From the IMG/VR virus record IMGVR_UViG_2740892439_000007, positions 1-30,004 of that record: a DNA stretch of 30,004 nucleotides, one strand, 5' to 3'. Origin of the DNA: a virus (Duplodnaviria; Heunggongvirae; Uroviricota; Caudoviricetes). The notes beneath the pieces were generated by a model. It made no database searches and was not told the DNA's origin. It was given only the letters and a program-made list of their open reading frames with translations. Shown in pieces: positions 941 to 10,812 of the stretch (the stretch's first letter is position 1; each line of letters starts with the position of its first letter). A program made the position numbers and the translations under genes.

Positions 941-975
941 TGCGATAATTACACCAATCAGAAAACAAATTATTT
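941..975 (+). promoter_or_regulatory. Extended -10 promoter (TGCGATAAT, 941-949) followed by operator AAACAA-A-TTATTT (963-975)
   Basis: Cassette ttgcgataat(t/a)acaccaa...agaaaacaa is repeated almost verbatim at 13999, 15441 and 15929. Confidence 0.6.
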
Positions 976-987
976 AATGGTGTAATT

Positions 988-2673
988 ATGAATACAGCCC
1001 TTTCCATCAGCGACGATGCCAGCTCAAACACGGCTATCGACTATCGTCAGGAAATGAATGTCATCCACGAAATCGTGGCCGAGTGCGAGAAAGAGATCGC
1101 CTTCATGTATCAGGTACACGACTTCGTTTATGGCGACGAACGCCACAACATGATTAATCGCCTGCTGAGACTAAACCATCGACCAGATGAAGATCGCTCG
1201 CGTTTAAATCGAGGTTGGTTGGATAAAGTCGATCTGGAATGGGTGAAACAGAATATTTGGGCCGAGTACTGGAGGAAGGTCACGGACATGACTAACGTTT
1301 TGCTGATCATGCCAGCTTCCCGTCGAGATGAGTGGCGCGAGCAGTTTATAGAGGGCAAACAGGAAGTCATCAAAACTGACAGAACCGGCTACCAGATGAA
1401 GGTTAAAGAGTTCGTTGGTGTACCGGAGTTCAAAGCAGAAACGGTCATACCCACGATGCTTAATTTGCTGAATGACAGGCACAAATATCTCTCTGAGCGC
1501 GTGTATGGCTTGTTTAAGGCGCTGAGTCCTGCGCACAAGACAAATAAGACAAACGGTTTCAGCGAGCGTCTGATAATCGCTGACTGCATTTCTGATTTCT
1601 GGCGGGACAGCGTTAGCGTGAACTATCGCAAAGAGGACTACATCGACGATCTGCGTGTCTTGCTTCATTTCTTCGCGCACAAAGAATTTATTACCATCAA
1701 CCGCACTGCTGAGGTGCTATCAGCTGCGTATCGGGCAAACGACTGCCAGACCGGTGACTGGATGAACGTCGATGGAAATCTGATGCGCGTGAAGATGTTC
1801 AAGAACGGCAACGTTCACTTTGAAATACATCCTGACGTGGCCTGGAAGTTGAATGAGGTGCTGGCTTACAGTATGCCTGCTGCAATTCCCGCGCCATGCC
1901 GAACTGCGCCAAAAACACGGGCACCAAAGCAGTTCGGGTTAATCCAGAAGACGATCTCCGTGCCGGTTCGCACTGCGCTTCGTGACGGGCGATTGAGCAA
2001 AGACAAAGGCGTATGGTACTTCTCTGATTCAGCTCTCCAGAAGTCGCAGGTGGAAGAGCTTGAGCGCACACTGAGCTTCATTGGCGGCGTGCAGGAGAAA
2101 AAGCACTGGCAGTTCCCGTATGACATCGGCCATACGCTAAATACGATTGTGGCTACCGGTTTAATACCGGATACAAAATCACACCAGTTCTACCCTACCC
2201 CACGCTTGATTGCTGAGTACGTTGCCAGAGCCACTGAATTGAAGCCTGGTGAGAAGCTGCTGGAGCCTCAAGCCGGACGTGGGGATCTTCTGGCCTATAT
2301 TAACGCCGATCTGGAAGATGTTACCTGCATAGAAATCGCACCTCTCTTCGCTGATATCCTGCGTGGAAAAGGGTATACGAACACGATTTGCTGCGACTTC
2401 ATAAAGTGGTCTGAGGACAACGCAGGTTATCAGTTCGACAAAATCGTTATGAACCCGCCGTACTCGCTTGGTCGTCATAGAGAGCACACGCTGGCTGCGC
2501 TGGGGCATCTGAAAGTCGGCGGGCGTCTTGTAGCAGTATTGCCGGGCACTGCGCCAATACTGGACTGGATGACGATGGATAATTACGTTTATGCCAGAGG
2601 GAAGTCGTTTACCAACGAGTTTGAAGATACCGGGATCACAGTCAGCGTATACGTTTTCAAACGCGTTAAATGA
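988..2673 (+). CDS. SAM-dependent amino-methyltransferase (probably DNA N6-adenine or N4-cytosine) with a roughly 400-aa N-terminal domain of unknown function
   Basis: C-terminal region has an LEPQAGRGDLL motif-I-like SAM-binding segment followed by NPPY (motif IV); the N-terminal 400 aa match nothing I recognise. Confidence 0.7.
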   Translation: MNTALSISDDASSNTAIDYRQEMNVIHEIVAECEKEIAFMYQVHDFVYGDERHNMINRLLRLNHRPDEDRSRLNRGWLDKVDLEWVKQNIWAEYWRKVTDMTNVLLIMPASRRDEWREQFIEGKQEVIKTDRTGYQMKVKEFVGVPEFKAETVIPTMLNLLNDRHKYLSERVYGLFKALSPAHKTNKTNGFSERLIIADCISDFWRDSVSVNYRKEDYIDDLRVLLHFFAHKEFITINRTAEVLSAAYRANDCQTGDWMNVDGNLMRVKMFKNGNVHFEIHPDVAWKLNEVLAYSMPAAIPAPCRTAPKTRAPKQFGLIQKTISVPVRTALRDGRLSKDKGVWYFSDSALQKSQVEELERTLSFIGGVQEKKHWQFPYDIGHTLNTIVATGLIPDTKSHQFYPTPRLIAEYVARATELKPGEKLLEPQAGRGDLLAYINADLEDVTCIEIAPLFADILRGKGYTNTICCDFIKWSEDNAGYQFDKIVMNPPYSLGRHREHTLAALGHLKVGGRLVAVLPGTAPILDWMTMDNYVYARGKSFTNEFEDTGITVSVYVFKRVK

Positions 2674-2734
2674 TAGGTAAATACTTACTTAATTTGTGTA
2701 AGAATGTAGTAACTAAACGATAAGAGAAAAACAC

Positions 2735-3439
2735 ATGAACAACCTCCAGTTAGAGCATTTTAACGTCACAGGCCATTCTGATTTTCCTTTCAAGTTTACA
2801 TTGAAAGGTTATGCAGAGGATGCGGTAGGCCAGATTATTATTGATAAAGGCATCGTTAAGTTTGAGGGGAATTTTGATGAATCCGCGAAAACATTCATAG
2901 ACTTCGTTGCCAAACGTTGGAGCGAGCAATGGAAAGACATGGAAAAGCGCGCTAGTGAGTTTGATCGGTTCATGGATGCAATGGATACAGCAAAAGAGGC
3001 TCTTGCTGCCGGGACTCCGTTAGATCTTGAGTCACTTTTCAACGGCGAAGTGGCCTCTGCGATGTTCGCCACCATGTTCGCGGGTGAGTTCGTCCGCAGC
3101 GGTGCCAAAAACTACCTTGAGCTGGATTACAACGTCCCTGCAATTGGCGATTTCGTCGTTACCATCCAACGCAAAGAAGGTAAGACGCCAGGTGAACGCG
3201 TCGCAGAGCTTGAGGCCGTTGTGGATCAGCGTAACGGAGAGTGTGACCGTTTGATCAACGAGCTTCATGCACTTCGGGAAGAAAGAATATGTGCGGGTAG
3301 CAATACACGTAATGCAGCGGATATCTACTTCCAGTTAGTTGAGGAATGCCAGATTCCACCAGGTGGCTCTCTTGTCGATTACGTCAGACATTTAATGGCG
3401 GAAGTTAACTCCAGCCATAAAGATGGTGAGGTGCGCTGA
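2735..3439 (+). CDS. Hypothetical protein (234 aa)
   Basis: ORF with ATG preceded by gagaaaaacac leader similar to those of 280 and 3958; first gene of a coupled operon. Confidence 0.65.
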   Translation: MNNLQLEHFNVTGHSDFPFKFTLKGYAEDAVGQIIIDKGIVKFEGNFDESAKTFIDFVAKRWSEQWKDMEKRASEFDRFMDAMDTAKEALAAGTPLDLESLFNGEVASAMFATMFAGEFVRSGAKNYLELDYNVPAIGDFVVTIQRKEGKTPGERVAELEAVVDQRNGECDRLINELHALREERICAGSNTRNAADIYFQLVEECQIPPGGSLVDYVRHLMAEVNSSHKDGEVR

Positions 3440-3819
3440 TGTTTGGCATTGACGCACAGCGTATAGCCGCTTTTGCAAAAAGCCCTCTTGATAATCCCTT
3501 GTCTCGTAGTGAGCAAATGGAGCTGGCAAGGCTTTTTATTCACATTCAAAAACAGGCAGACGTTTTCAATAACATGCCTGATCAACCTATTCTGGATGGT
3601 CACATCCAGATGGTCATTAACAGTCATGAGAAAGGCTGGGCTGCAATCGTCCCCTGCACAATTACATACAAGTTGGCGAAAGAGGTTCAAGAGTTTCGAA
3701 AAGCCAGTGTCGAATCGGAGTCTACCAAAGCCGCAATAAACACTCTTATTCGCATGGGGTTCACATGGACCGGTGGAGCCTACTGGCAAGCACCTCACCC
3801 CATTTTATCCGGCAATTAG
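3439..3819 (+). CDS. Hypothetical protein (126 aa)
   Basis: ATGA start/stop overlap with the upstream gene (translational coupling). Confidence 0.6.
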   Translation: MFGIDAQRIAAFAKSPLDNPLSRSEQMELARLFIHIQKQADVFNNMPDQPILDGHIQMVINSHEKGWAAIVPCTITYKLAKEVQEFRKASVESESTKAAINTLIRMGFTWTGGAYWQAPHPILSGN

Positions 3820-3850
3820 ACGCTACAAATCCTTCGGCATGAATAAATAA

Positions 3851-3869
3851 AGGCCATAAGTTGTGGCCT
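3851..3869 (+). terminator. Hairpin (aggcca taagttg tggcct), weak terminator candidate
   Basis: 6-bp stem after the stop of CDS 3439-3819; T-rich tract only 8 nt further downstream. Confidence 0.35.
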
Positions 3870-3870
3870 T

Positions 3871-3883
3871 AAATAAATTGTTT
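3871..3883. promoter_or_regulatory. Operator-like palindrome AAATAA-A-TTGTTT (1 mismatch), within a 30-bp block also found at 10736
   Basis: aaattgttttctaccttttcttatttg here versus caatttgttttctaccttttgttgattg at 10738. Confidence 0.5.
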
Positions 3884-3957
3884 TCTACCTTTTCTTATTT
3901 GTGAAAATAAACCAGCACTTGGTAGTGCTTATGTAACAGCAAAGAAGAGAAAAACAC

Positions 3958-4200
3958 ATGAGTAACAAAATCGAAAACCCCGTAGTTCTCATTCACAAGC
4001 GTGAGAACCCCGACTCCTATGCGGTGGCGATCACCAATGGGAGTCACGATTATTACGATGGTCTGCTAATGGCCTCAGTGTCGCCTGATGAGGCAGACAA
4101 CTCTTTTGCCGTCTTCGCTATGGTTGGTTACTACATGGCTGCCGAAATTGAGAAGTTGCGGGCGCAGAGAGACGCATTAGCGGCGGAGAATGCAGCCTGA
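3958..4200 (+). CDS. Hypothetical protein (80 aa)
   Basis: ORF with ATG and gagaaaaacac leader. Confidence 0.55.
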   Translation: MSNKIENPVVLIHKRENPDSYAVAITNGSHDYYDGLLMASVSPDEADNSFAVFAMVGYYMAAEIEKLRAQRDALAAENAA

Positions 4201-4226
4201 AAGAATCTGAGCGAGCATTCGATGCG

Positions 4227-4412
4227 ATGTGTGCCGAGGAACACGGAGATAATTGGGTTAGCGAATTAACGGAGACTCCAGCCACCGATGCTTTTCTGGC
4301 TGAAGTACGTGCGCAGGGCGTGGAGATGTTTGCTGAGTGCGCATACACACTTGAACATCATGATCACGCAGTAGCTTTTGCCGCTGAGCTTCGTACAGGA
4401 AATAAACAGTGA
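4227..4412 (+). CDS. Hypothetical protein (61 aa)
   Basis: ORF with ATG start; stop overlaps the next gene start (GTGA). Confidence 0.45.
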   Translation: MCAEEHGDNWVSELTETPATDAFLAEVRAQGVEMFAECAYTLEHHDHAVAFAAELRTGNKQ

Positions 4413-5134
4413 ATGAGATTTACTACCTGACGTTACGTGAACGTTATTCACCAAAACCAGCGCCTAAATGCTCTGTTTGTGACGAGGAAATGTCAATACA
4501 GCGCATATCTGGAGCACATGTTGTTTATGCCTGTTCCGGTGAGGGTGATGACGGATATTTTAAGATAGGGCGTACTTTTGCAGACGAACATTATGAAAAA
4601 TCACGCGTAACAGTAGTTGATGATAGTGATCCCGATGTGATTGCACTGCTGGACGAACTGGATAAAAGACAGCAACACATCCGACGTCTTGAGCAGGAGA
4701 ACGTAGAGATGGCCCTAACGCTTGAGAAACTGCGTGTTGAGCTGGAGACCGTTAAACAGCGGGAAAAGGATCTGTTTATGGAAAATGTTCGACTTAAGTC
4801 AGGTATAGCAGGTCTGATACACCTCGGTATTCGATATGCGGATGTCGAAGTCATGAAAATAGCTGGTGATGCCCAGCTTTCTACTCCCTGTACTGACAGC
4901 ATCATAAACAGTATTGCATCAGGCGTTTTCACCAAAGAGGTCAGCATTATGAGAACAGTAGAAGTTCGCGCTGAAGATGTAACCCCAGGTGATGTGGTCA
5001 TAACATCTAAAGGCAAACGATGTGCGGTTAAATCTTTCTGGATGGAAGGTGACAAAGTGACTCTGTTCGGTACGGATGGTTCCGAAACGGATTATGACTA
5101 CGACGAATTACTTGTTGTTGAGAGAGCTATCTAA
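4409..5134 (+). CDS. Hypothetical protein (241 aa) with an N-terminal Cys cluster (CSVC...C) and a predicted coiled coil
   Basis: ORF from GTG overlapping the upstream stop; sequence features only, no family recognised. Confidence 0.6.
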   Translation: MNEIYYLTLRERYSPKPAPKCSVCDEEMSIQRISGAHVVYACSGEGDDGYFKIGRTFADEHYEKSRVTVVDDSDPDVIALLDELDKRQQHIRRLEQENVEMALTLEKLRVELETVKQREKDLFMENVRLKSGIAGLIHLGIRYADVEVMKIAGDAQLSTPCTDSIINSIASGVFTKEVSIMRTVEVRAEDVTPGDVVITSKGKRCAVKSFWMEGDKVTLFGTDGSETDYDYDELLVVERAI

Positions 5135-5829
5135 TGACCACCGTTAACAATAAGAAATGCTACCCAAGCGAGCAATATCTTAATGAGCTGATCACCAACA
5201 TAGAGTTTGCTGCAAGGACACCTGTTGAAGTCGTGAGAGCGATGGCAGCAGAGCTACAGAAGCGGCGCGAAGCTGATAGTGCAGAACCTGTAAGCCAAAC
5301 TTACAAGTTGCCAGTTAATACACCTTGCCAAGATGCGCCAGCCCATATCTGGCTGCAAACGGCTGGAGTATGGCCAGAAGATAGCGAGTTAAGCGAATTA
5401 ACGTGGTGCAGCCACAATCAGCACCATGATGACACGCTATATGTTCGAGCTGACCTTGTGAATGGCAACTATCCGGATATTCCGGATAGTTCGGTGCCAG
5501 CGCCAGGAAAGGGCGTCACCGGTGAACGTATCCGCATTAAGCCGCATGTTTATCGCGAACTGGTTAACCGCCTCCACGATACAGCGATCAAGTGTGCTGG
5601 CACCCAGCAATTACGAGAAAAAATTAGCCGTGTTTTGGGCGACGTTATTACGCCAGATCATCATAAACAAGCCGAGAAAAGTGACCTGGAAAGGTGTCAC
5701 CTTGAGGCGGCATTAAATATTAAGCCGGGACATACGCTTGGCATTATCGATGCTCTGTTGGTTCATAAGATGGCCAGGGCTTTATTGCCGCTGGTGGATG
5801 CTGGCGATACAAGCGAGGGTGAAGTATGA
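5134..5829 (+). CDS. Hypothetical protein (231 aa)
   Basis: TAATG overlap with the upstream gene. Confidence 0.6.
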   Translation: MTTVNNKKCYPSEQYLNELITNIEFAARTPVEVVRAMAAELQKRREADSAEPVSQTYKLPVNTPCQDAPAHIWLQTAGVWPEDSELSELTWCSHNQHHDDTLYVRADLVNGNYPDIPDSSVPAPGKGVTGERIRIKPHVYRELVNRLHDTAIKCAGTQQLREKISRVLGDVITPDHHKQAEKSDLERCHLEAALNIKPGHTLGIIDALLVHKMARALLPLVDAGDTSEGEV

Positions 5830-6188
5830 GAGTTGCAGATCACATCAAAAACCTTGAAAGAATTATCGAAAACGGTGAACTCTTAAGAGATCAGATGAGA
5901 CGCACGGCAGAAGTCAGAGAGGCGATAATTCGCAGTCAGGCTGGTAAATTAAAGCAATTGTCAGAGATTAACACGCTATACAAGAACAGACGTAACCGGG
6001 TGGCGCTGCGGCTTCAGAAAGCACGTAATGAAATTAAATTGGTGGAGGCAAAACTGAAAAAACAGATCCAGCGTTACGATCAGCAAGATGCTTTTTATGC
6101 CGCCATCAAGGCGGTTGCTAATGAAATAGGCATCTGGAAGTTGCTGGTGGAGGAAGCAAAGACGAAGTTAAATGCCAACGAAAGCTGA
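5826..6188 (+). CDS. Hypothetical basic coiled-coil protein (120 aa)
   Basis: ATGA overlap with the upstream gene; last gene of the coupled operon. Confidence 0.6.
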   Translation: MRVADHIKNLERIIENGELLRDQMRRTAEVREAIIRSQAGKLKQLSEINTLYKNRRNRVALRLQKARNEIKLVEAKLKKQIQRYDQQDAFYAAIKAVANEIGIWKLLVEEAKTKLNANES

Positions 6189-6261
6189 ACTACAGGTGCC
6201 CACCAGCATACAGAAAATGATTGTTTCCACATCAAGGAGATTTTAATGTTTCACTGAAACA

Positions 6262-6399
6262 TTAAGTAAGCCAGTGCATAATTCCATTTTTTACTGATCT
6301 TAAAAGCAAAATCAAAACGATGATGAGGATAATAGCCAGAATCTGGCTAATAACAGGCGCATCTAAAAATGCACTCAGGAACTGAAAAAAAGCGTTCAT
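6262..6399 (-). CDS. Small hydrophobic protein candidate (45 aa, MNAFFQFLSAFLDAPVISQILAIILIIVLILLLRSVKNGIMHWLT)
   Basis: ORF below the size cutoff of the supplied track; single predicted transmembrane segment; weak RBS. Confidence 0.3.
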   Translation of the reverse strand: MNAFFQFLSAFLDAPVISQILAIILIIVLILLLRSVKNGIMHWLT

Positions 6400-6441
6400 T
6401 CAGGTGGTTCCTTGTCAAATGTAAAGGTGCACTTGCTCACG

Positions 6442-6470
6442 TTGACGTAGAAACCCAACCCCTATATAGT
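6442..6470 (+). promoter_or_regulatory. Sigma-70-like promoter candidate TTGACG-N17-TATAGT
   Basis: Near-consensus -35 and -10 with 17-bp spacer; no convincing CDS downstream; iteron-like motifs and a hairpin (6555-6580) follow. Confidence 0.35.
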
Positions 6471-6516
6471 TGGATTCGGTGAATGAAAGTCGTTAACGTG
6501 AGCTTACGGCACATGT

Positions 6517-6541
6517 TTTCGGAAAAACATCAGGGAACGGC
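6517..6541. repeat. Iteron-like motifs (ttttcggaaaaacatc aggGAACGGC) related to the arrays at 13548 and 16514
   Basis: Shares the block GAAAAACATC-GGGAA with 16606-16625. Confidence 0.4.
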
Positions 6542-6896
6542 TAATTCCTTGATGCGGGTGGGGTCTGTAATGCAGACCCTATCTATTAACGTCATGATTG
6601 CATCTCAAATTTTCTCCTTATCTTCAATTAATCTACATTCATTTCATCTGTTAGCCACCACAATATGTAGAAAATGGCCCTCTTGCAAGTGCATAGCTTT
6701 GTGGATAACTCAGGAAGGAAAAAGTGGCTTTCGCGCACTTTAGACCGGACAAGGCGTTCGAAAAAGTCAATGGGAAGAAAAAATTTGTTAAAAATAACGT
6801 TTGTTTGAATTGTATATATTTATGCCTTTCAATAGTTAGCATCTTATTAACATCTTTTTTAAGAGATAGAGTTCAAAAATATATAGCTTCAACATA

Positions 6897-6916
6897 TACT
6901 GTATGTGTATACAGTA
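6897..6916. promoter_or_regulatory. LexA (SOS) box TACTGTATGTGTATACAGTA overlapping a TATACT -10
   Basis: Perfect CTGT-N8-ACAG dyad 17 nt upstream of the UmuD'-like start codon. Confidence 0.8.
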
Positions 6917-6932
6917 TTAAGAGGCGAGTATT

Positions 6933-7322
6933 ATGGGCTTCCCTTCTCCTGCGGCGGATTATGCTGAGAGCCGTATTTCTCTTGATCAGCAGATAATTAG
7001 ACATCCTTCAGCGACCTACTTCATGAGGGCAGCTGATAGTCATCATCGTGAGGGAATATTACAGGGTGCATTGCTGGTGGTCGATTCCTCACTTACCCCG
7101 GTTGATGGTTCTCTGCTTGTATGCGCTCTGGATGGGGAATATCGCGTAAAAAGATACCGGAAGTACCCACGTCAGCATCTGGAGGATTTAAGAACCGGTA
7201 AGAAGGAAGCATTGCCAAAGGATGACGATGGATGCACGGGCAGCAATGCCGTGTTTGGTGTGATCACTCACATTATCAACGACGCAAGAAGTGGCGAGTT
7301 TGATGATTGTCCCGTGATGTAG
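6933..7322 (+). CDS. UmuD'-like S24 peptidase-family protein, encoded without the N-terminal cleavable arm (HumD-like)
   Basis: Begins M-GFPSPAADY, i.e. at the equivalent of the UmuD Cys24/Gly25 cleavage site; Ser (ADSH) and Lys (RVKR) of the catalytic dyad are present; no upstream in-frame start is available. Confidence 0.8.
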   Translation: MGFPSPAADYAESRISLDQQIIRHPSATYFMRAADSHHREGILQGALLVVDSSLTPVDGSLLVCALDGEYRVKRYRKYPRQHLEDLRTGKKEALPKDDDGCTGSNAVFGVITHIINDARSGEFDDCPVM

Positions 7323-7334
7323 GAGAACTGATTA

Positions 7335-7358
7335 GGCGGTGCAATGCACCGCCTTTTT
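7335..7358 (+). terminator. Rho-independent terminator (ggcggtgc aat gcaccgcc + TTTTT)
   Basis: 8-bp GC stem plus T5, 13 nt after the UmuD'-like stop and ending 2 nt before the mrp stop codon. Confidence 0.75.
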
Positions 7359-7359
7359 A

Positions 7360-8460
7360 TCACACTGCGCGGAATGCGATTTCGCCAGGTATTACTTCAC
7401 CTTGCCAATACATTTGGGCAGCAACGCGATCTGCGAGGTCACGATAAATAGCCGTAAATTCGCTATCTGGACGACTAATAACGGTTGGTGTTCCGTTATC
7501 CAGATCTTCACGAAGAGAGATATGAAGTGGCATTTGGCCTAACAACTGCGTGTTGTATTTCTCGGCCAGTTTCTGTGCGCCACCGGTGCCAAAAATTGGC
7601 TCGTGATGACCGCAGTTACTGCAAATATGCACACTCATGTTTTCGACGATACCCAGTACCGGCACTTCGACTTTTTCGAACATCACAATGCCTTTCTTCG
7701 CATCGATCAGCGCGATGTCTTGCGGCGTAGTTACCACAACCGCACCAGTTACAGGAATGTTCTGCGCCAGCGTCAACTGAATATCACCAGTGCCCGGCGG
7801 CATATCGAGAACGAGATAGTCCAGATCAGGCCATAGAGTTTCCTGCAACATCTGCATCAGCGCCTTGCTGGCCATCGGTCCACGCCACACCATTGCATTG
7901 TCGTCGGTGACCAGATAACCAATAGAGTTGGTTGCCAGGCCATGAGACATGATAGGTGCCATGTGAGTACCGTCAGGTGAGGTTGGACGTTGGTTTTCCG
8001 CTCCCAGCATGGTTGGAATTGATGGACCATAGATATCGGCATCCAAAATACCAACTTTCGCACCTTCAGCAGCCAACGCCAGTGCCAGGTTCACCGCCGT
8101 GGAGGATTTACCCACGCCGCCCTTGCCTGAGCTGACGGCGATAATGTTCTTAACGCCATTAATGCCTGGTTGGTTTTTGACGCGCTTAAGCGTGGCAATG
8201 TTGTACGACAGCTTCCAGTCAATAGCCTTTGCGCCAGTGATACGGAGCAGATCACCACTACATTGCTCTTTCAGGTCTTCAAAAGGCTTATTCCACACGA
8301 AAGGCATGATTAGTTCGACATGCAGTGTGTCATCCATCAACGCAACATGGTGTAACGCTTTAAGCGTAGTCAGGTTGTGTTTCAGGGTTGGGTGCTGAAA
8401 ATTAGCCAGCGTACCGGCTACCATTGCTCTCAGGGCATCCGGCGATTTGGACTCGCTCAT
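7360..8460 (-). CDS. apbC: Fe-S cluster carrier ATPase ApbC/Mrp
   Basis: 366-aa product with P-loop SSGKGGVGKS and C-terminal CxxC; near-identical to E. coli Mrp as recalled. Confidence 0.95.
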   Translation of the reverse strand: MSESKSPDALRAMVAGTLANFQHPTLKHNLTTLKALHHVALMDDTLHVELIMPFVWNKPFEDLKEQCSGDLLRITGAKAIDWKLSYNIATLKRVKNQPGINGVKNIIAVSSGKGGVGKSSTAVNLALALAAEGAKVGILDADIYGPSIPTMLGAENQRPTSPDGTHMAPIMSHGLATNSIGYLVTDDNAMVWRGPMASKALMQMLQETLWPDLDYLVLDMPPGTGDIQLTLAQNIPVTGAVVVTTPQDIALIDAKKGIVMFEKVEVPVLGIVENMSVHICSNCGHHEPIFGTGGAQKLAEKYNTQLLGQMPLHISLREDLDNGTPTVISRPDSEFTAIYRDLADRVAAQMYWQGEVIPGEIAFRAV

Positions 8461-8617
8461 CCCGTCTCCTTTATTTTAATTTGCGCAATTGTCGCCTTGT
8501 AGTGTACTCCAGCTACGACATTTAATCATTTATGAGAAATGCTGTTATCACATGGCAGACATAAGGCCATTTTGTTACTATCAAGCCCCTTTTCACTACA
8601 AAGAAGTAATGCCTACT

Positions 8618-10651
8618 ATGACCCAAGTCGCGAAGAAAATTCTGGTGACGTGCGCGCTGCCGTACGCTAACGGCTCAATCCACCTCGGCCATATGCTGGA
8701 GCACATCCAGGCTGATGTCTGGGTTCGTTACCAGCGAATGCGCGGCCACGAGGTTAATTTCATCTGTGCCGACGATGCCCACGGTACGCCGATCATGCTG
8801 AAAGCACAGCAGCTTGGTATCACACCGGAGCAGATGATTGGCGAAATGAGTCAGGAACACCAGACTGATTTCGCAGGCTTTAACATCAGCTATGACAACT
8901 ATCACTCGACGCACAGCGAAGAGAACCGTCAGTTGTCTGAGCTTATCTATACTCGCCTGAAAGAGAACGGTTTTATTAAAAACCGCACTATCTCTCAGTT
9001 GTACGACCCGGAAAAAGGCATGTTCCTGCCGGATCGTTTTGTAAAAGGCACCTGCCCGAAATGTAAAGCGCCAGATCAATACGGCGATAACTGTGAAGTC
9101 TGCGGCGCGACCTACAGCCCGACTGAACTGATTGAGCCGAAATCGGTAGTTTCTGGCGCTACGCCGGTAATGCGTGATTCTGAACACTTCTTCTTTGATC
9201 TGCCCTCTTTCAGCGAAATGTTGCAGGCATGGACCCGCAGCGGCGCGTTGCAGGAGCAGGTGGCGAACAAAATGCAGGAATGGTTTGAATCCGGCCTGCA
9301 ACAGTGGGATATCTCCCGCGATGCGCCTTACTTCGGTTTTGAAATTCCGAACGCGCCGGGCAAATATTTCTACGTCTGGCTGGACGCGCCGATTGGCTAC
9401 ATGGGTTCCTTCAAGAATCTGTGCGACAAGCGCGGCGATACCACCAGCTTCGATGAATACTGGAAGAAAGACTCCACCGCCGAGCTGTACCACTTCATCG
9501 GTAAAGATATTGTTTACTTCCACAGCCTGTTCTGGCCTGCCATGCTGGAAGGCAGCAACTTCCGCAAGCCGACCAACCTGTTTGTTCACGGCTATGTGAC
9601 GGTGAACGGCGCGAAGATGTCCAAGTCTCGCGGCACCTTTATTAAAGCCAGCACCTGGCTGAATCATTTTGACGCCGACAGCCTGCGTTACTACTACGCT
9701 GCGAAACTCTCTTCGCGCATTGATGATATCGATCTCAACCTGGAGGATTTCGTTCAGCGCGTGAATGCCGATATCGTGAACAAAGTGGTTAACCTGGCCT
9801 CCCGTAATGCAGGCTTTATCAACAAGCGTTTTGACGGCGTGCTGGCAAGCGAACTGGCTGACCCGCAACTGTACAAAACCTTTACTGATGCCGCTGAAGT
9901 GATTGGCGAAGCATGGGAAAGCCGCGAATTTGGTAAAGCTATCCGTGAAATCATGGCATTGGCTGACCTGGCTAACCGCTATGTCGATGAACAGGCTCCG
10001 TGGGTGGTGGCGAAGCAGGAAGGACGCGATGCCGATCTGCAGGCGATTTGCTCTATGGGCATTAACCTGTTCCGCGTGCTGATGACGTACCTGAAGCCGG
10101 TACTGCCGAAACTGACTGAACGTGCAGAAGCATTCCTGAATACAGAACTGACCTGGGATGGTATCCAGCAACCGCTGCTGGGCCATAAAGTGAATCCGTT
10201 CAAGGCACTGTATAACCGTATCGATATGAAGCAGGTTGAAGCACTGGTGGAAGCATCTAAAGAAGAAGTGAAAGCAGCTGCCACGCCAGTAACTGGCCCG
10301 CTGGCAGATGATCCGATTCAGGAAACCATCACCTTTGATGACTTCGCCAAAGTTGACCTGCGCGTGGCGCTGATTGAAAACGCAGAGTTTGTAGAAGGTT
10401 CTGACAAACTGCTTCGCCTGACGCTGGATCTCGGTGGTGAAAAGCGTAATGTCTTCTCAGGCATCCGTTCCGCTTATCCAGATCCACAGGCACTGATTGG
10501 TCGTCACACCATTATGGTGGCTAACCTGGCACCACGTAAAATGCGCTTCGGTATCTCTGAAGGCATGGTGATGGCTGCTGGCCCTGGCGGGAAAGATATC
10601 TTCCTGTTAAGCCCGGATGTCGGTGCTAAACCTGGCCACCAGGTTAAGTAA
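8618..10651 (+). CDS. metG: Methionine--tRNA ligase
   Basis: [25 protein letters not shown] (HIGH motif), KMSKS, C-terminal tRNA-binding domain; near-identical to E. coli MetG as recalled; the track ORF start at 8489 is an upstream alternative codon. Confidence 0.97.
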
Positions 10652-10697: not shown

Positions 10698-10735
10698 CAT
10701 ATAGACACAACCCCTTCTGACTTTAACAAACCCTA

Positions 10736-10799
10736 AAACAATTTGTTTTCTACCTTTTGTTGATTGAGATAATAAGCCACATAAGAAAACAAATTGTTT
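10736..10799 (+). promoter_or_regulatory. Promoter with two perfect operators (10736-10748 AAACAA-T-TTGTTT; 10787-10799 AAACAA-A-TTGTTT) flanking an extended -10 TGAGATAAT (10765-10773)
   Basis: Operator centres 51 bp apart, the same spacing as at 15412/15463. Confidence 0.65.
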
Positions 10800-10812
10800 C
10801 GGAGTGGTTGAA

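Follow-up and report, generated by a model that had tools for sequence, protein, structure and literature searches.

Mosaic accessory genes between a DNA methyltransferase gene and humD in an SSU5-like phage-plasmid of Escherichia coli

The stretch of DNA analysed here (the window, 30,004 nucleotides) carries a block of small genes at 2735 to 6188, which we call A to F, between a gene for a DNA methyltransferase and the SOS-regulated gene humD. The genes and the elements around them are as follows:

960 to 977, plus strand: 18-bp operator-like palindrome AGAAAACAAATTATTTAA, 10 nt before the methyltransferase start
988 to 2673, plus strand: DUF4942-domain DNA methyltransferase, 561 aa (PF13708, 1.7e-20; phrog_6263, 2e-299)
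2735 to 3439, plus strand: gene A, 234 aa, three modules (phrog_8364, full length)
3439 to 3819, plus strand: gene B, 126 aa, small helical protein (phrog_10451)
3850 to 3870, no strand assigned: GC-rich hairpin AAGGCCATAAGTTGTGGCCTT, 3' of B (terminator scan and RNA fold)
3869 to 3908, plus strand: inverted copy of the 18-bp motif (3869-3886), then ACCTTTTCTTATTTGTGAAAAT, aligning with the promoter between the motif pair 10734/10784
3958 to 4412, plus strand: gene C, 151 aa, with an Ea22-like coiled-coil segment (phrog_492, end to end)
4409 to 4948, plus strand: gene D1, Ead/Ea22-like, 188 aa in relatives (PF13935, phrog_368)
4949 to 5134, plus strand: gene D2, 61 aa, own ATG at 4949 (phrog_15283)
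5134 to 5829, plus strand: gene E, 231 aa, a chimera (phrog_6847 and phrog_21459)
5261 to 6783, no strand assigned: P1-like segment (blastn: 95% to JL22; 95% to P1 from 5463)
5826 to 6188, plus strand: gene F, 120 aa, P1 PmgV, predicted coiled coil (phrog_4403; 97% nucleotide identity to P1 85554-85916)
6897 to 7322, plus strand: perfect LexA box (6897-6916) and humD (6933-7322), a separate SOS-regulated unit

Nucleotide and synteny matches identify the window as DNA of an SSU5-like E. coli phage-plasmid. The block is 99.9% identical throughout to a 111-kb E. coli plasmid that carries thyA and dfrA51, the latter a marker described for SSU5 (PMC12217456). The SSU5-type phages Cyrano and PhiR41_1 match, Cyrano in synteny, and SSU5 itself matches inside gene A at 83.5%. 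Elements of the SSU5 group are ~100-115 kb in size and non-integrated, and have the dfrA51/thyA cluster.

An earlier note had read the block as a tightly coupled operon of seven genes, none with an assignable motif, co-expressed stoichiometrically and possibly encoding a multi-component accessory system. All seven ORFs (234, 126, 80, 61, 241, 231 and 120 aa) are present with the positions and sizes it claimed, and the four start/stop overlaps are legible in the sequence (TGATG at 3437-3441, GTGA at 4409-4412, TAATG at 5132-5136 and ATGA at 5826-5829), with Shine-Dalgarno-like strings upstream of the B, D, E and F starts. The ORFs are indeed co-directional, closely packed and translationally coupled, but a 138-bp gap (3820-3957) interrupts the array between B and C, and seven separate genes they are not: those of 80 and 61 aa are one split gene, and that of 241 aa is a fusion of two. 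Overlaps of 1 or 4 nt also occur elsewhere on the same plasmid (the thyA/HAD/dfrA51/AAA genes and tciA/tciB), and the same junction types are found among the window's structural genes and where the P1-like phage JL22 has its equivalent cassettes. The overlaps are no special mark of this block; phage gene arrays are ordinarily compact and translationally coupled in this way.

Gene C is split here by the loss of one C, leaving CC at 4196-4197; plasmid NZ_OZ501614.1, otherwise identical, has CCC there and encodes the intact 151-aa protein, and the 4200/4227 junction between the two ORFs is absent in relatives. The N half of C is of SSU5 type and its C half (64-151) is common to lambdoid prophage genes. 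The 241-aa ORF (D, 4409-5134) does have an assignable motif, matching Pfam Ead_Ea22 (PF13935) over residues 3-147 at 88.6 bits against a cut-off of 27 (E = 7e-25), with weak coiled-coil-type matches (APG6_N, TolA_bind_tri) at residues 49-125. Through the loss of one G at 4939-4940 it joins D1 in frame to D2, a separate overlapping gene in relatives; this deletion is common to NZ_OZ501614.1 and is not found in six other close relatives. Sub-gene modules of D are scattered among relatives, and its dN/dS is 0.37-0.49 on few substitutions. The Pfam search of the block proteins gave no match besides Ead_Ea22. None of A, C, E and F matches PF13935 itself; what A and C have in common with lambdoid-prophage proteins of this family is modules (central, coiled-coil and C-terminal).

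The proximity to the methyltransferase, also pointed out in the earlier note, has substance for A and B, which are inseparable from that gene, but C to F are not so tied. Order and spacing of the three genes are fixed in 31 of 31 distinct related stretches, at amino-acid identities down to 67% (A) and 57% (B): the methyltransferase always lies 1738-1748 bp upstream of A, and B, always directly 3' of A, starts at an offset of +686/+704 from it. The A+B stretch is matched in 190 records, plasmids exclusively, and nearly full length in 164 of them. The methyltransferase has a dN/dS of 0.06-0.08 and A one of 0.12-0.19, which establishes purifying selection on A. This protein has an N module specific to SSU5-like elements, while its central (~58-165) and C-terminal (~156-229) modules also occur in Ead/Ea22-family proteins of lambdoid prophages; it has 196 homologues, mostly on ~100-115 kb Enterobacteriaceae contigs among the best-scoring matches listed, and its AF2 model is poor (pLDDT 56.7), with long helices predicted at low confidence. 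Gene B has only 19 homologues, residues 1-85 being conserved and the C-terminus lineage-specific in the alignment, and its AF2 model (pLDDT 68, pTM 0.34) has no Foldseek match.

The window has 11 copies of the 18-bp motif, where 0.04 would be expected by chance, with none inside the methyltransferase-A-B stretch or inside C to F, and most of the diverged SSU5-like elements keep it at syntenic sites. The copy at 960-977, kept in position in diverged SSU5-like elements and with an extended -10-like TGCGATAAT just upstream, marks the presumed regulated promoter of the methyltransferase-A-B unit. At the other end, the hairpin at 3850-3870 is the probable terminator or attenuator closing this unit; its T-rich tail is better on the minus strand and weak on the plus strand, so read-through into C to F is possible. 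Immediately beyond it, the inverted motif copy with a predicted extended -10, TGTGAAAAT, at 3900-3908 would be the presumed promoter of a variable unit beginning with C. Diverged relatives examined have a motif ~50 nt past the B stop, with the exception of L028, which has none near B, and the extra genes of relatives, including a 1.16-kb insertion, are placed exactly at this boundary, downstream of the motif. The hairpin and the promoter/operator-like element, which together occupy the gap between B and C, argue for two transcription units. Phage P1 has scattered C1 repressor operators, and T4-type phages have PeSL elements, which are promoter-bearing mobile cassettes. As in both, a short conserved site is repeated here at many predicted intergenic promoters and brackets exchangeable cassettes; its sequence differs, with a palindromic AAACAAnTTGTTT core. 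We found no description of the regulation of SSU5-like phage-plasmids in the searchable literature, and the motif is a candidate for their operator network.

Such an arrangement invites the reading that the methyltransferase, A and B alone form a functional system, A and B being specificity, regulatory or anti-restriction partners and C to F passengers. The unchanged synteny speaks for this, as do the motif and hairpin that bracket the three genes with no motif and no strong terminator-like hairpin between them, the A/B overlap, the selection on A and the confinement of A and B to this phage-plasmid group. However, synteny within one phage family can reflect inheritance instead of function, and IS100 interrupts the methyltransferase gene of p503025_100, where A and B are intact. 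Moreover, the modules of A are those of Ead/Ea22-type prophage proteins without any methyltransferase, B is fast-evolving with an often frameshifted C-terminus, and neither structure nor profile searches tied A or B to partners of methyltransferases. We consider such a system possible but doubtful.

Downstream of B the picture is one of extreme variability. humD is the conserved right-hand anchor, HumD being 98-100% identical in close SSU5-like relatives and 94% in the most diverged, while the distance from A to humD ranges from 3,406 to 7,689 bp in the 31 stretches, with more than 20 arrangements downstream of the boundary and gene C at four different offsets or missing. The C+D stretch is matched in 972 records, mostly chromosomal prophages (29 near full length), and E+F in 967 (15 near full length). 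Gene order and co-occurrence in related elements were one proposed check of the earlier reading, which in essence fails it: the complete block is present in 2 of the 1,691 matching records from 5,426 complete E. coli genomes, two near-identical plasmids, and in 1 of the 704 matching plasmids among 72,556 in PLSDB. A-B-C-D1-D2 is contiguous at 97-99% identity in one sub-lineage of plasmids from E. coli and E. albertii, which shows some linkage, though recent common ancestry alone may explain it. Profile and structure searches, the other proposed check, yielded PF13935 for D and full-length PHROG matches of 1e-40 to 1e-147 for the block proteins, but no system: NCBIfam had no match to a known system, PDB and fold searches of the block proteins gave none, and PADLOC-DB 2.0 has no family for A to E and only a 0.043 coiled-coil match of F to PbeC, the adjoining methyltransferase matching its MTase models.

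The right end of the block is a recent import from a P1-like phage-plasmid. The segment 5261-6783 holds most of gene E and pmgV and is flanked by SSU5-like DNA at 97.5-97.9%; within it, 5463-6188 is 97.4% identical to P1 85191-85916. Its left junction lies inside gene E and its right junction within ~100 bp (6684-6783) common to both phage families. Gene E itself combines an N module (1 to ~108), common to DUF551/'EaA' prophage proteins, with a C module that is P1 PmgU; long P1-like proteins end in a part 93% identical to this PmgU module. Between them lies the linker GNYPDIPD (5464-5487), invariant in the alignment. E has 2,902 homologues, with this exact N/C combination in one 29-member cluster, and a dN/dS of 0.1-0.2. 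Gene F is 96% identical to PmgV in amino acids, has a dN/dS of 0.44-0.93 on few substitutions, and is found in 1 of the 31 SSU5-like stretches and otherwise in P1-like elements only.

C-like, Ea22-like and EaA/DUF551-like genes follow one another in a lambdoid prophage as in the block, and the lambdoid Ead/Ea22 proteins are non-essential and highly diverse (PMC7093339, PMC10834534), a character that the block proteins would share, as they may a build in three parts, with a coiled coil between a variable N end and a variable domain at the C-terminus. Ea22 itself is made early, forms a coiled-coil tetramer, favours lysogeny and varies in its C-terminal domains (PMC7093339, PMC10834534), the pro-lysogenic effect being known only for lambda and Stx phages (PMC7093339). 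In contrast to the lambda ea genes, the block lies between the DUF4942 methyltransferase and humD and not between exo and xis, and lacks a pL/N context. Only SSU5-like elements have the N module of A and the N half of C, and a sequence search with the block proteins found no solved C-terminal domain of lambda Ea22. EaA/DUF551 proteins of P22-like and lambdoid prophages (~180 aa) are ~90% identical in their N part to E 1-121 and have the GNYPxxPD linker in common, whereas E lacks the DUF551 domain and continues as PmgU. P1 pmgU and pmgV make up the C-terminal half of E and the whole of F (95-97% nucleotide identity), with the downstream upfM-upfO region alongside, and in P1 too the pmg genes lie upstream of humD. 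This interval, pmgT-humD, is 'variable region 8' of P1-like phage-plasmids (PMC9603915), and P1 pmgT/U/V score as non-essential (PMC10695390); JL22 has genes for a methyltransferase, Ea22 and EaA at this position. Unlike in P1, pmgU is joined here to a different N module in an SSU5-like host element, the homology beginning at 5261/5463 inside E, and the PpmgT promoter and C1 operator Op88 were not transferred; no C1 operator occurs in the window at up to 3 mismatches.

It is conceivable that the variable cassettes constitute a counter-defence or superinfection-exclusion arsenal, each protein with its own host or competitor target and the rapid swapping of modules the result of an arms race. 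The restriction of hypervariability to the interval between conserved anchors, the shuffling of modules around conserved linkers, operator-like control that suggests expression on derepression, and the known hotspot character of the equivalent P1-like region (PMC9603915) are all consistent with this idea. On the other hand, no PADLOC model matched, the literature consulted showed no experimental tie of Ead/Ea22, DUF551, PmgU or PmgV to defence or anti-defence, and the lambda Ea22 data point to lysis-lysogeny tuning (PMC7093339), so that we regard an arsenal as unlikely. Decaying prophage-gene remnants without current function are a poorer explanation still: two frameshifts within 3.4 kb, relaxed dN/dS for F and D and non-essential P1 homologues (PMC10695390) could suggest decay, but the ORFs all remain long and open with full-length PHROG matches, A and E are constrained, start signals and overlaps are kept and the family of E is very abundant, which makes this improbable. 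A seven-gene machine, such as one for defence or anti-defence, is scarcely credible and is largely refuted by its distribution: despite the shared orientation, the coupled junctions, the adjoining methyltransferase and its intact presence in two plasmids, its parts differ in host range and replicon type, its right end is imported, two of its ORFs are frameshift products, a hairpin and promoter/operator-like element lie inside it, neither PADLOC nor NCBIfam recognises it, and its overlaps are commonplace on the element.

Very probably, then, the SSU5-like phage-plasmid carries accessory ('ea-type') genes in this block, and no dedicated multi-protein machine. Its anatomy, mosaic origin and distribution, as established here, are those of a known kind of mosaic accessory region, with two fixed methyltransferase-tied genes followed by hypervariable cassettes. 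We propose a model in which (i) the methyltransferase gene heads a three-gene unit with A and B as its fixed tail, a unit that would begin at a promoter overlapped by the 18-bp palindromic operator-like site and end at the hairpin. (ii) The hypervariable region would extend from the second operator/promoter-like element to humD, with cassettes in series: C and D1 (Ead/Ea22-like coiled-coil), D2, E (EaA/DUF551-type chimera) and F (PmgV). (iii) Whole cassettes and sub-gene modules would be swapped by homologous recombination among SSU5-like and P1-like phage-plasmids and lambdoid prophages, at common coiled-coil segments, common N-terminal modules and the conserved linker. In this lineage, a 1.5-kb P1-like piece displaced the resident right end, after which two 1-nt homopolymer deletions split one gene and fused two others. 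The accessory genes may be under repressor control, expressed on infection or induction and individually dispensable. By analogy with lambda Ea22, whose phenotype is here carried over to a different phage type, each of their proteins may work by itself, as an oligomeric coiled-coil adaptor that adjusts the physiology of the host or the balance between lysis and lysogeny.

More speculatively, and with little confidence, the stretch from B to humD could be a regulated, promoter-proximal 'cassette dock' common to three temperate phage families, with the methyltransferase, A and B separately forming a three-protein DNA-modification module. The 18-bp operator/promoter element, the coiled-coil segments and the GNYPxxPD linker would be the joints at which genes and protein modules swap to give new oligomeric coiled-coil adaptor proteins, switched on by the loss of a putative repressor binding the AAACAAnTTGTTT palindrome. 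If so, the dock would serve the phages as a natural combinatorial library of proteins with which to manipulate their host or rival elements.

Under the preferred reading as an accessory gene region, the block matters little as a system. Its lesson is that tight start/stop overlaps and common orientation alone do not indicate a multi-protein machine in phage genomes. It also provides a clear map of a recombination hotspot linking SSU5-like, P1-like and lambdoid elements, all of them of clinical relevance as carriers of genes for resistance and toxins. Among the by-products the repeated operator-like motif is the most useful, and the two lineage-specific frameshifts bear on annotation.

The region at 2735-6188 is best read as a known kind of locus: a temperate phage's accessory gene array, non-essential and prone to recombination, in which a fixed methyltransferase-A-B unit would precede a hypervariable cassette unit. 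The earlier note had treated it as one operon of seven tightly coupled genes; the coordinates and lengths of the seven ORFs are confirmed, as are, by reading the sequence, the four start/stop overlaps. The block is discontinuous: the second ORF stops at 3819 and the third starts at 3958, with 138 bp between them. Two of the seven 'genes' arise from single-base changes. At 4196-4197 the window reads CC where NZ_OZ501614.1, otherwise identical, has CCC and encodes one 151-aa protein, C, spanning PHROG family 492 end to end. The 80-aa and 61-aa ORFs are the two halves of C, and a small toxin-antitoxin-like pair was rejected because they belong to a single gene. The 241-aa ORF (D) arose through loss of one G at 4939-4940, joining a 188-aa Ead/Ea22-like gene (D1) to a 61-aa gene with its own ATG at 4949 (D2); these are two overlapping genes in six close relatives, and the fusion also occurs in NZ_OZ501614.1. 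Because single-nucleotide losses split C and fused D1 and D2, the ancestral content is the seven genes A to F.

Genes with ancestral lengths, overlaps and flanking genes
988..2673, methyltransferase (561-aa DUF4942 protein)
2735..3439, A (234 aa)
3437-3441, overlap TGATG
3439..3819, B (126 aa)
3958..4412, C (151 aa)
4409-4412, overlap GTGA
4409..4948, D1 (188 aa)
4949..5134, D2 (61 aa)
5132-5136, overlap TAATG
5134..5829, E (231 aa)
5826-5829, overlap ATGA
5826..6188, F (120 aa), P1 PmgV
6933-7322, humD

Overlaps of 1 or 4 nt are also frequent outside the block, both on this element and in related cassette regions, and they are a genome-wide property rather than a distinguishing mark of the block. 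The seven-component stoichiometric system suggested in the earlier note is unsupported, given the frameshifted ORFs, the scattered distribution of the genes and an import of P1-like DNA. An identical 17-nt string, AAGAGAAAAACACATGA, lies at 2722-2738 and 3945-3961 (two copies in the window against 0.12 expected). With only two copies, a regulatory repeat was rejected in favour of a ribosome-binding/start region shared by A and C, which may be gene-boundary sequence left by cassette exchange.

To follow gene order, the check that the earlier note proposed, we used each protein in turn to search IMG/VR, fetched 377 loci, scored every module on every one of them, and compared 31 distinct 6.5-kb stretches containing A. 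The methyltransferase lies 1,738-1,748 bp upstream of A and B at +686 or +704 from A in all 31, a spacing kept even where amino-acid identity falls to 67% (A) and 57% (B). Nothing is fixed in position downstream of B: 13 stretches have the start of C at +1223, seven at +2384 and six elsewhere, and in five C is undetected; F is found in one; and humD lies between 3,406 and 7,689 bp from A. Conserved gene order thus holds for methyltransferase-A-B and fails beyond B, and across 5,426 complete E. coli genomes most of the whole block was held by two. In PLSDB, one of 72,556 plasmids carries most of it.

Matches in complete E. coli genomes
A+B: 190 records, all on plasmids; 164 hold most of the query
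C+D: 972 records, 796 chromosomal places; 29 hold most of the query
E+F: 967 records, chromosomes and plasmids; 15 hold most of the query
Whole block: 1,691 records, chromosomes and plasmids; 2 hold most of the query

Selection estimates follow individual genes, with dN/dS of 0.06-0.08 for the methyltransferase, 0.12-0.19 for A, 0.11-0.23 for E, 0.37-0.49 for D and 0.44-0.93 for F (few differences); synonymous sites in B are saturated, and the gene evolves fast. Only residues 1-85 of B are conserved, and several homologues (P0129, P0131, P0135) have alternative, apparently frameshifted C-termini, so the last ~40 residues of the B in the window are lineage-specific. In plasmid p503025_100 (NZ_CP025894.1; locus L378, 207-4439), an IS100 element breaks up the region and cuts the DUF4942 methyltransferase short, leaving A and B intact. 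A narrower reading, with A and B as working partners of the methyltransferase, seems unlikely to us. Each protein of the region would probably work on its own as an oligomeric adaptor, the analogue being lambda Ea22, an early-expressed, pro-lysogenic, tetrameric coiled coil with variable C-terminal domains (PMC7093339, PMC10834534).

The arrangement of putative control sites is consistent with two transcription units. An 18-bp quasi-palindrome, AGAAAACAAnTTnTTTAA (core AAACAAnTTGTTT; putative operator sequence also given as AGAAAACAAnTTGTTTAA), has 11 copies in the window where 0.04 would be expected.

Copies of the quasi-palindrome
Plus-oriented: 246, 960, 10784, 14018, 14502, 15460, 24809, 24834
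Inverted: 3869, 10734, 15410

Plus-oriented copies stand 10-16 nt before start codons. An extended -10-like TGnGATAAT precedes them by ~11 nt, which puts them at roughly +1 to +18 of the predicted transcripts; at two predicted promoters another copy, inverted, lies 50 nt upstream. One copy (960-977) precedes the methyltransferase, and none lies between the methyltransferase, A and B. The inverted copy at 3869-3886 follows a hairpin (3850-3870) ~50 nt past the B stop, and the sequence after it aligns with the promoter-like 10734-10801, including TGTGAAAAT at 3900-3908; relatives carry extra genes between this 3869-3908 element and C. Read from sequence, the transcription units are likely methyltransferase-A-B and C-to-F, and the palindromes look like operators of a repressor. 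Their positions are kept in most of the diverged SSU5-like elements examined (Salmonella, Klebsiella type), they are absent from P1 loci, and no published description of the palindrome was found in the literature. A perfect LexA box, TACTGTATGTGTATACAGTA (6897-6916), stands 16 nt before humD, a UmuD' homologue, which is therefore predicted to be SOS-controlled, as in P1, and to form a separate unit.

Below the level of whole genes, the cassettes appear to be assembled from exchangeable modules. E has 2,902 homologues, and its exact module combination is confined to one 29-member cluster. Its first ~120 residues share ~90% identity with the N part of ~180-aa DUF551 proteins of chromosomal prophages, and its last ~120 form the C end of 293-392-aa P1-like proteins. 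The two meet at an invariant GNYPxxPD linker (window 5464-5487, E residues 111-118), which in a survey of ~2,900 prophage and phage-plasmid proteins joins varied N modules to varied C modules (PmgU-type, DUF551 and zinc-finger 'DnaJ'-annotated). The P1 nucleotide match begins exactly there, and the linker is likely a recombination joint. D occurs in relatives as separate pieces (1-118, 105-177 and 179-240), and A comprises three modules, of which the central one (~58-165) is found in 33 cluster representatives at E <= 1e-30, several with PF13935 N-termini; in lambdoid prophages the C-terminal module (156-229) forms the tail of an Ead/Ea22-like protein. One of these lambdoid prophages carries genes resembling C, Ea22 and EaA/DUF551 in the order seen here, and they too overlap. 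On this module sharing and gene order, we place A, C, D1 and E among the lambdoid 'ea' genes, in their combinatorial Ead/Ea22/EaA group. RefSeq already lists the individual genes as hypothetical or Ead/Ea22-like, and the corresponding P1 region has been published as a hotspot; the chief points of interest are the repeated operator-like palindrome and the conserved linker.

The earlier note could assign a motif to none of the seven proteins; Pfam places D in Ead_Ea22 (PF13935, 7e-25) and the upstream 561-aa protein in DUF4942 plus a methyltransferase fold, and it gave no family for the other ORFs of the block. Every ORF falls in a PHROG family of unknown function, D and E as composites of several. 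PADLOC and NCBIfam had no match for A-F, PDB sequence and profile searches with D and A gave chance coiled-coil matches only, and an Rfam scan of the whole window found no family. AlphaFold2 models were too poor for a fold search for A (27-sequence alignment; pLDDT 56.7, pTM 0.28) and of low confidence for B (12 sequences; pLDDT 68, pTM 0.34), with no Foldseek hit for B in the PDB below E = 4. Literature searches on pmgV, by name alone, gave unrelated papers only, and those on DUF4942 and an SSU5 operator nothing useful.

The block matches E. coli plasmids of ~100-120 kb. Plasmid p2 of isolate NRZ96606 matches it over its full length at 99.9% identity and encodes, on the same strand, thymidylate synthase, dfrA51, RNase H and other phage DNA-metabolism genes, dfrA51 being described as a marker of SSU5-type phage-plasmids (PMC12217456). 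Phages PhiR41_1 and Cyrano also match the block, and SSU5 itself matches inside A. An integrated prophage beside chromosomal apbC-metG was rejected because both genes are plasmid-borne. The phage-plasmid's own divergent apbC (mrp) and metG pair (7360-10651) shares ~90% identity with the chromosomal locus of E. coli. Complete E. coli genomes have it at 223 plasmid places, and phage Cyrano has it too; its metG is a second methionyl-tRNA synthetase.

Within this SSU5-like background, the blastn map places a P1-like segment between SSU5-like flanks.

Closest relatives by blastn
1811-5263, SSU5-like plasmid p503025_100, 97.9%
5261-6783, P1-like phage JL22 (P1 too, from 5463), 95%
6684-7400, SSU5-like again, 97.5%

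Given this map, we conclude that a 1.5-kb P1-like piece, containing most of E, pmgV and the upfM-upfO region, took the place of ~2.1 kb of resident DNA. The left crossover lies within E, in the N-terminal module common to both phage families, and the right one in ~100 bp of shared sequence upstream of humD. The P1 counterparts of the E C-end and F are pmgU and pmgV, in an operon under C1 operator Op88; that control region is absent from the transferred piece, and no C1 operator was found in the window. P1 pmgT, pmgU and pmgV score as non-essential (PMC10695390), and pmgT-to-humD is 'variable region 8' of P1-like phage-plasmids (PMC9603915), where JL22 has genes for a methyltransferase, Ea22 and EaA (PMC9603915 and annotation).

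The P1 reference (NC_005856; locus L002, 3298-4367; proteins P0182, P0195) has pmgT and pmgU in different frames, with 196 nt in common. Other P1-like elements commonly encode uninterrupted proteins of 336-392 aa, whose C end is 93% identical to PmgU, and the last ~60 residues of PmgT are an out-of-frame reading of the PmgU module, so pmgT and pmgU look like a single frameshift-split gene. The P1-derived segment also carries, on the minus strand at 6262-6399, a strongly hydrophobic 45-aa ORF (MNAFFQFLSAFLDAPVISQILAIILIIVLILLLRSVKNGIMHWLT; gp107 in JL22) that has no Pfam match; its product may be a type I toxin or a small membrane peptide.
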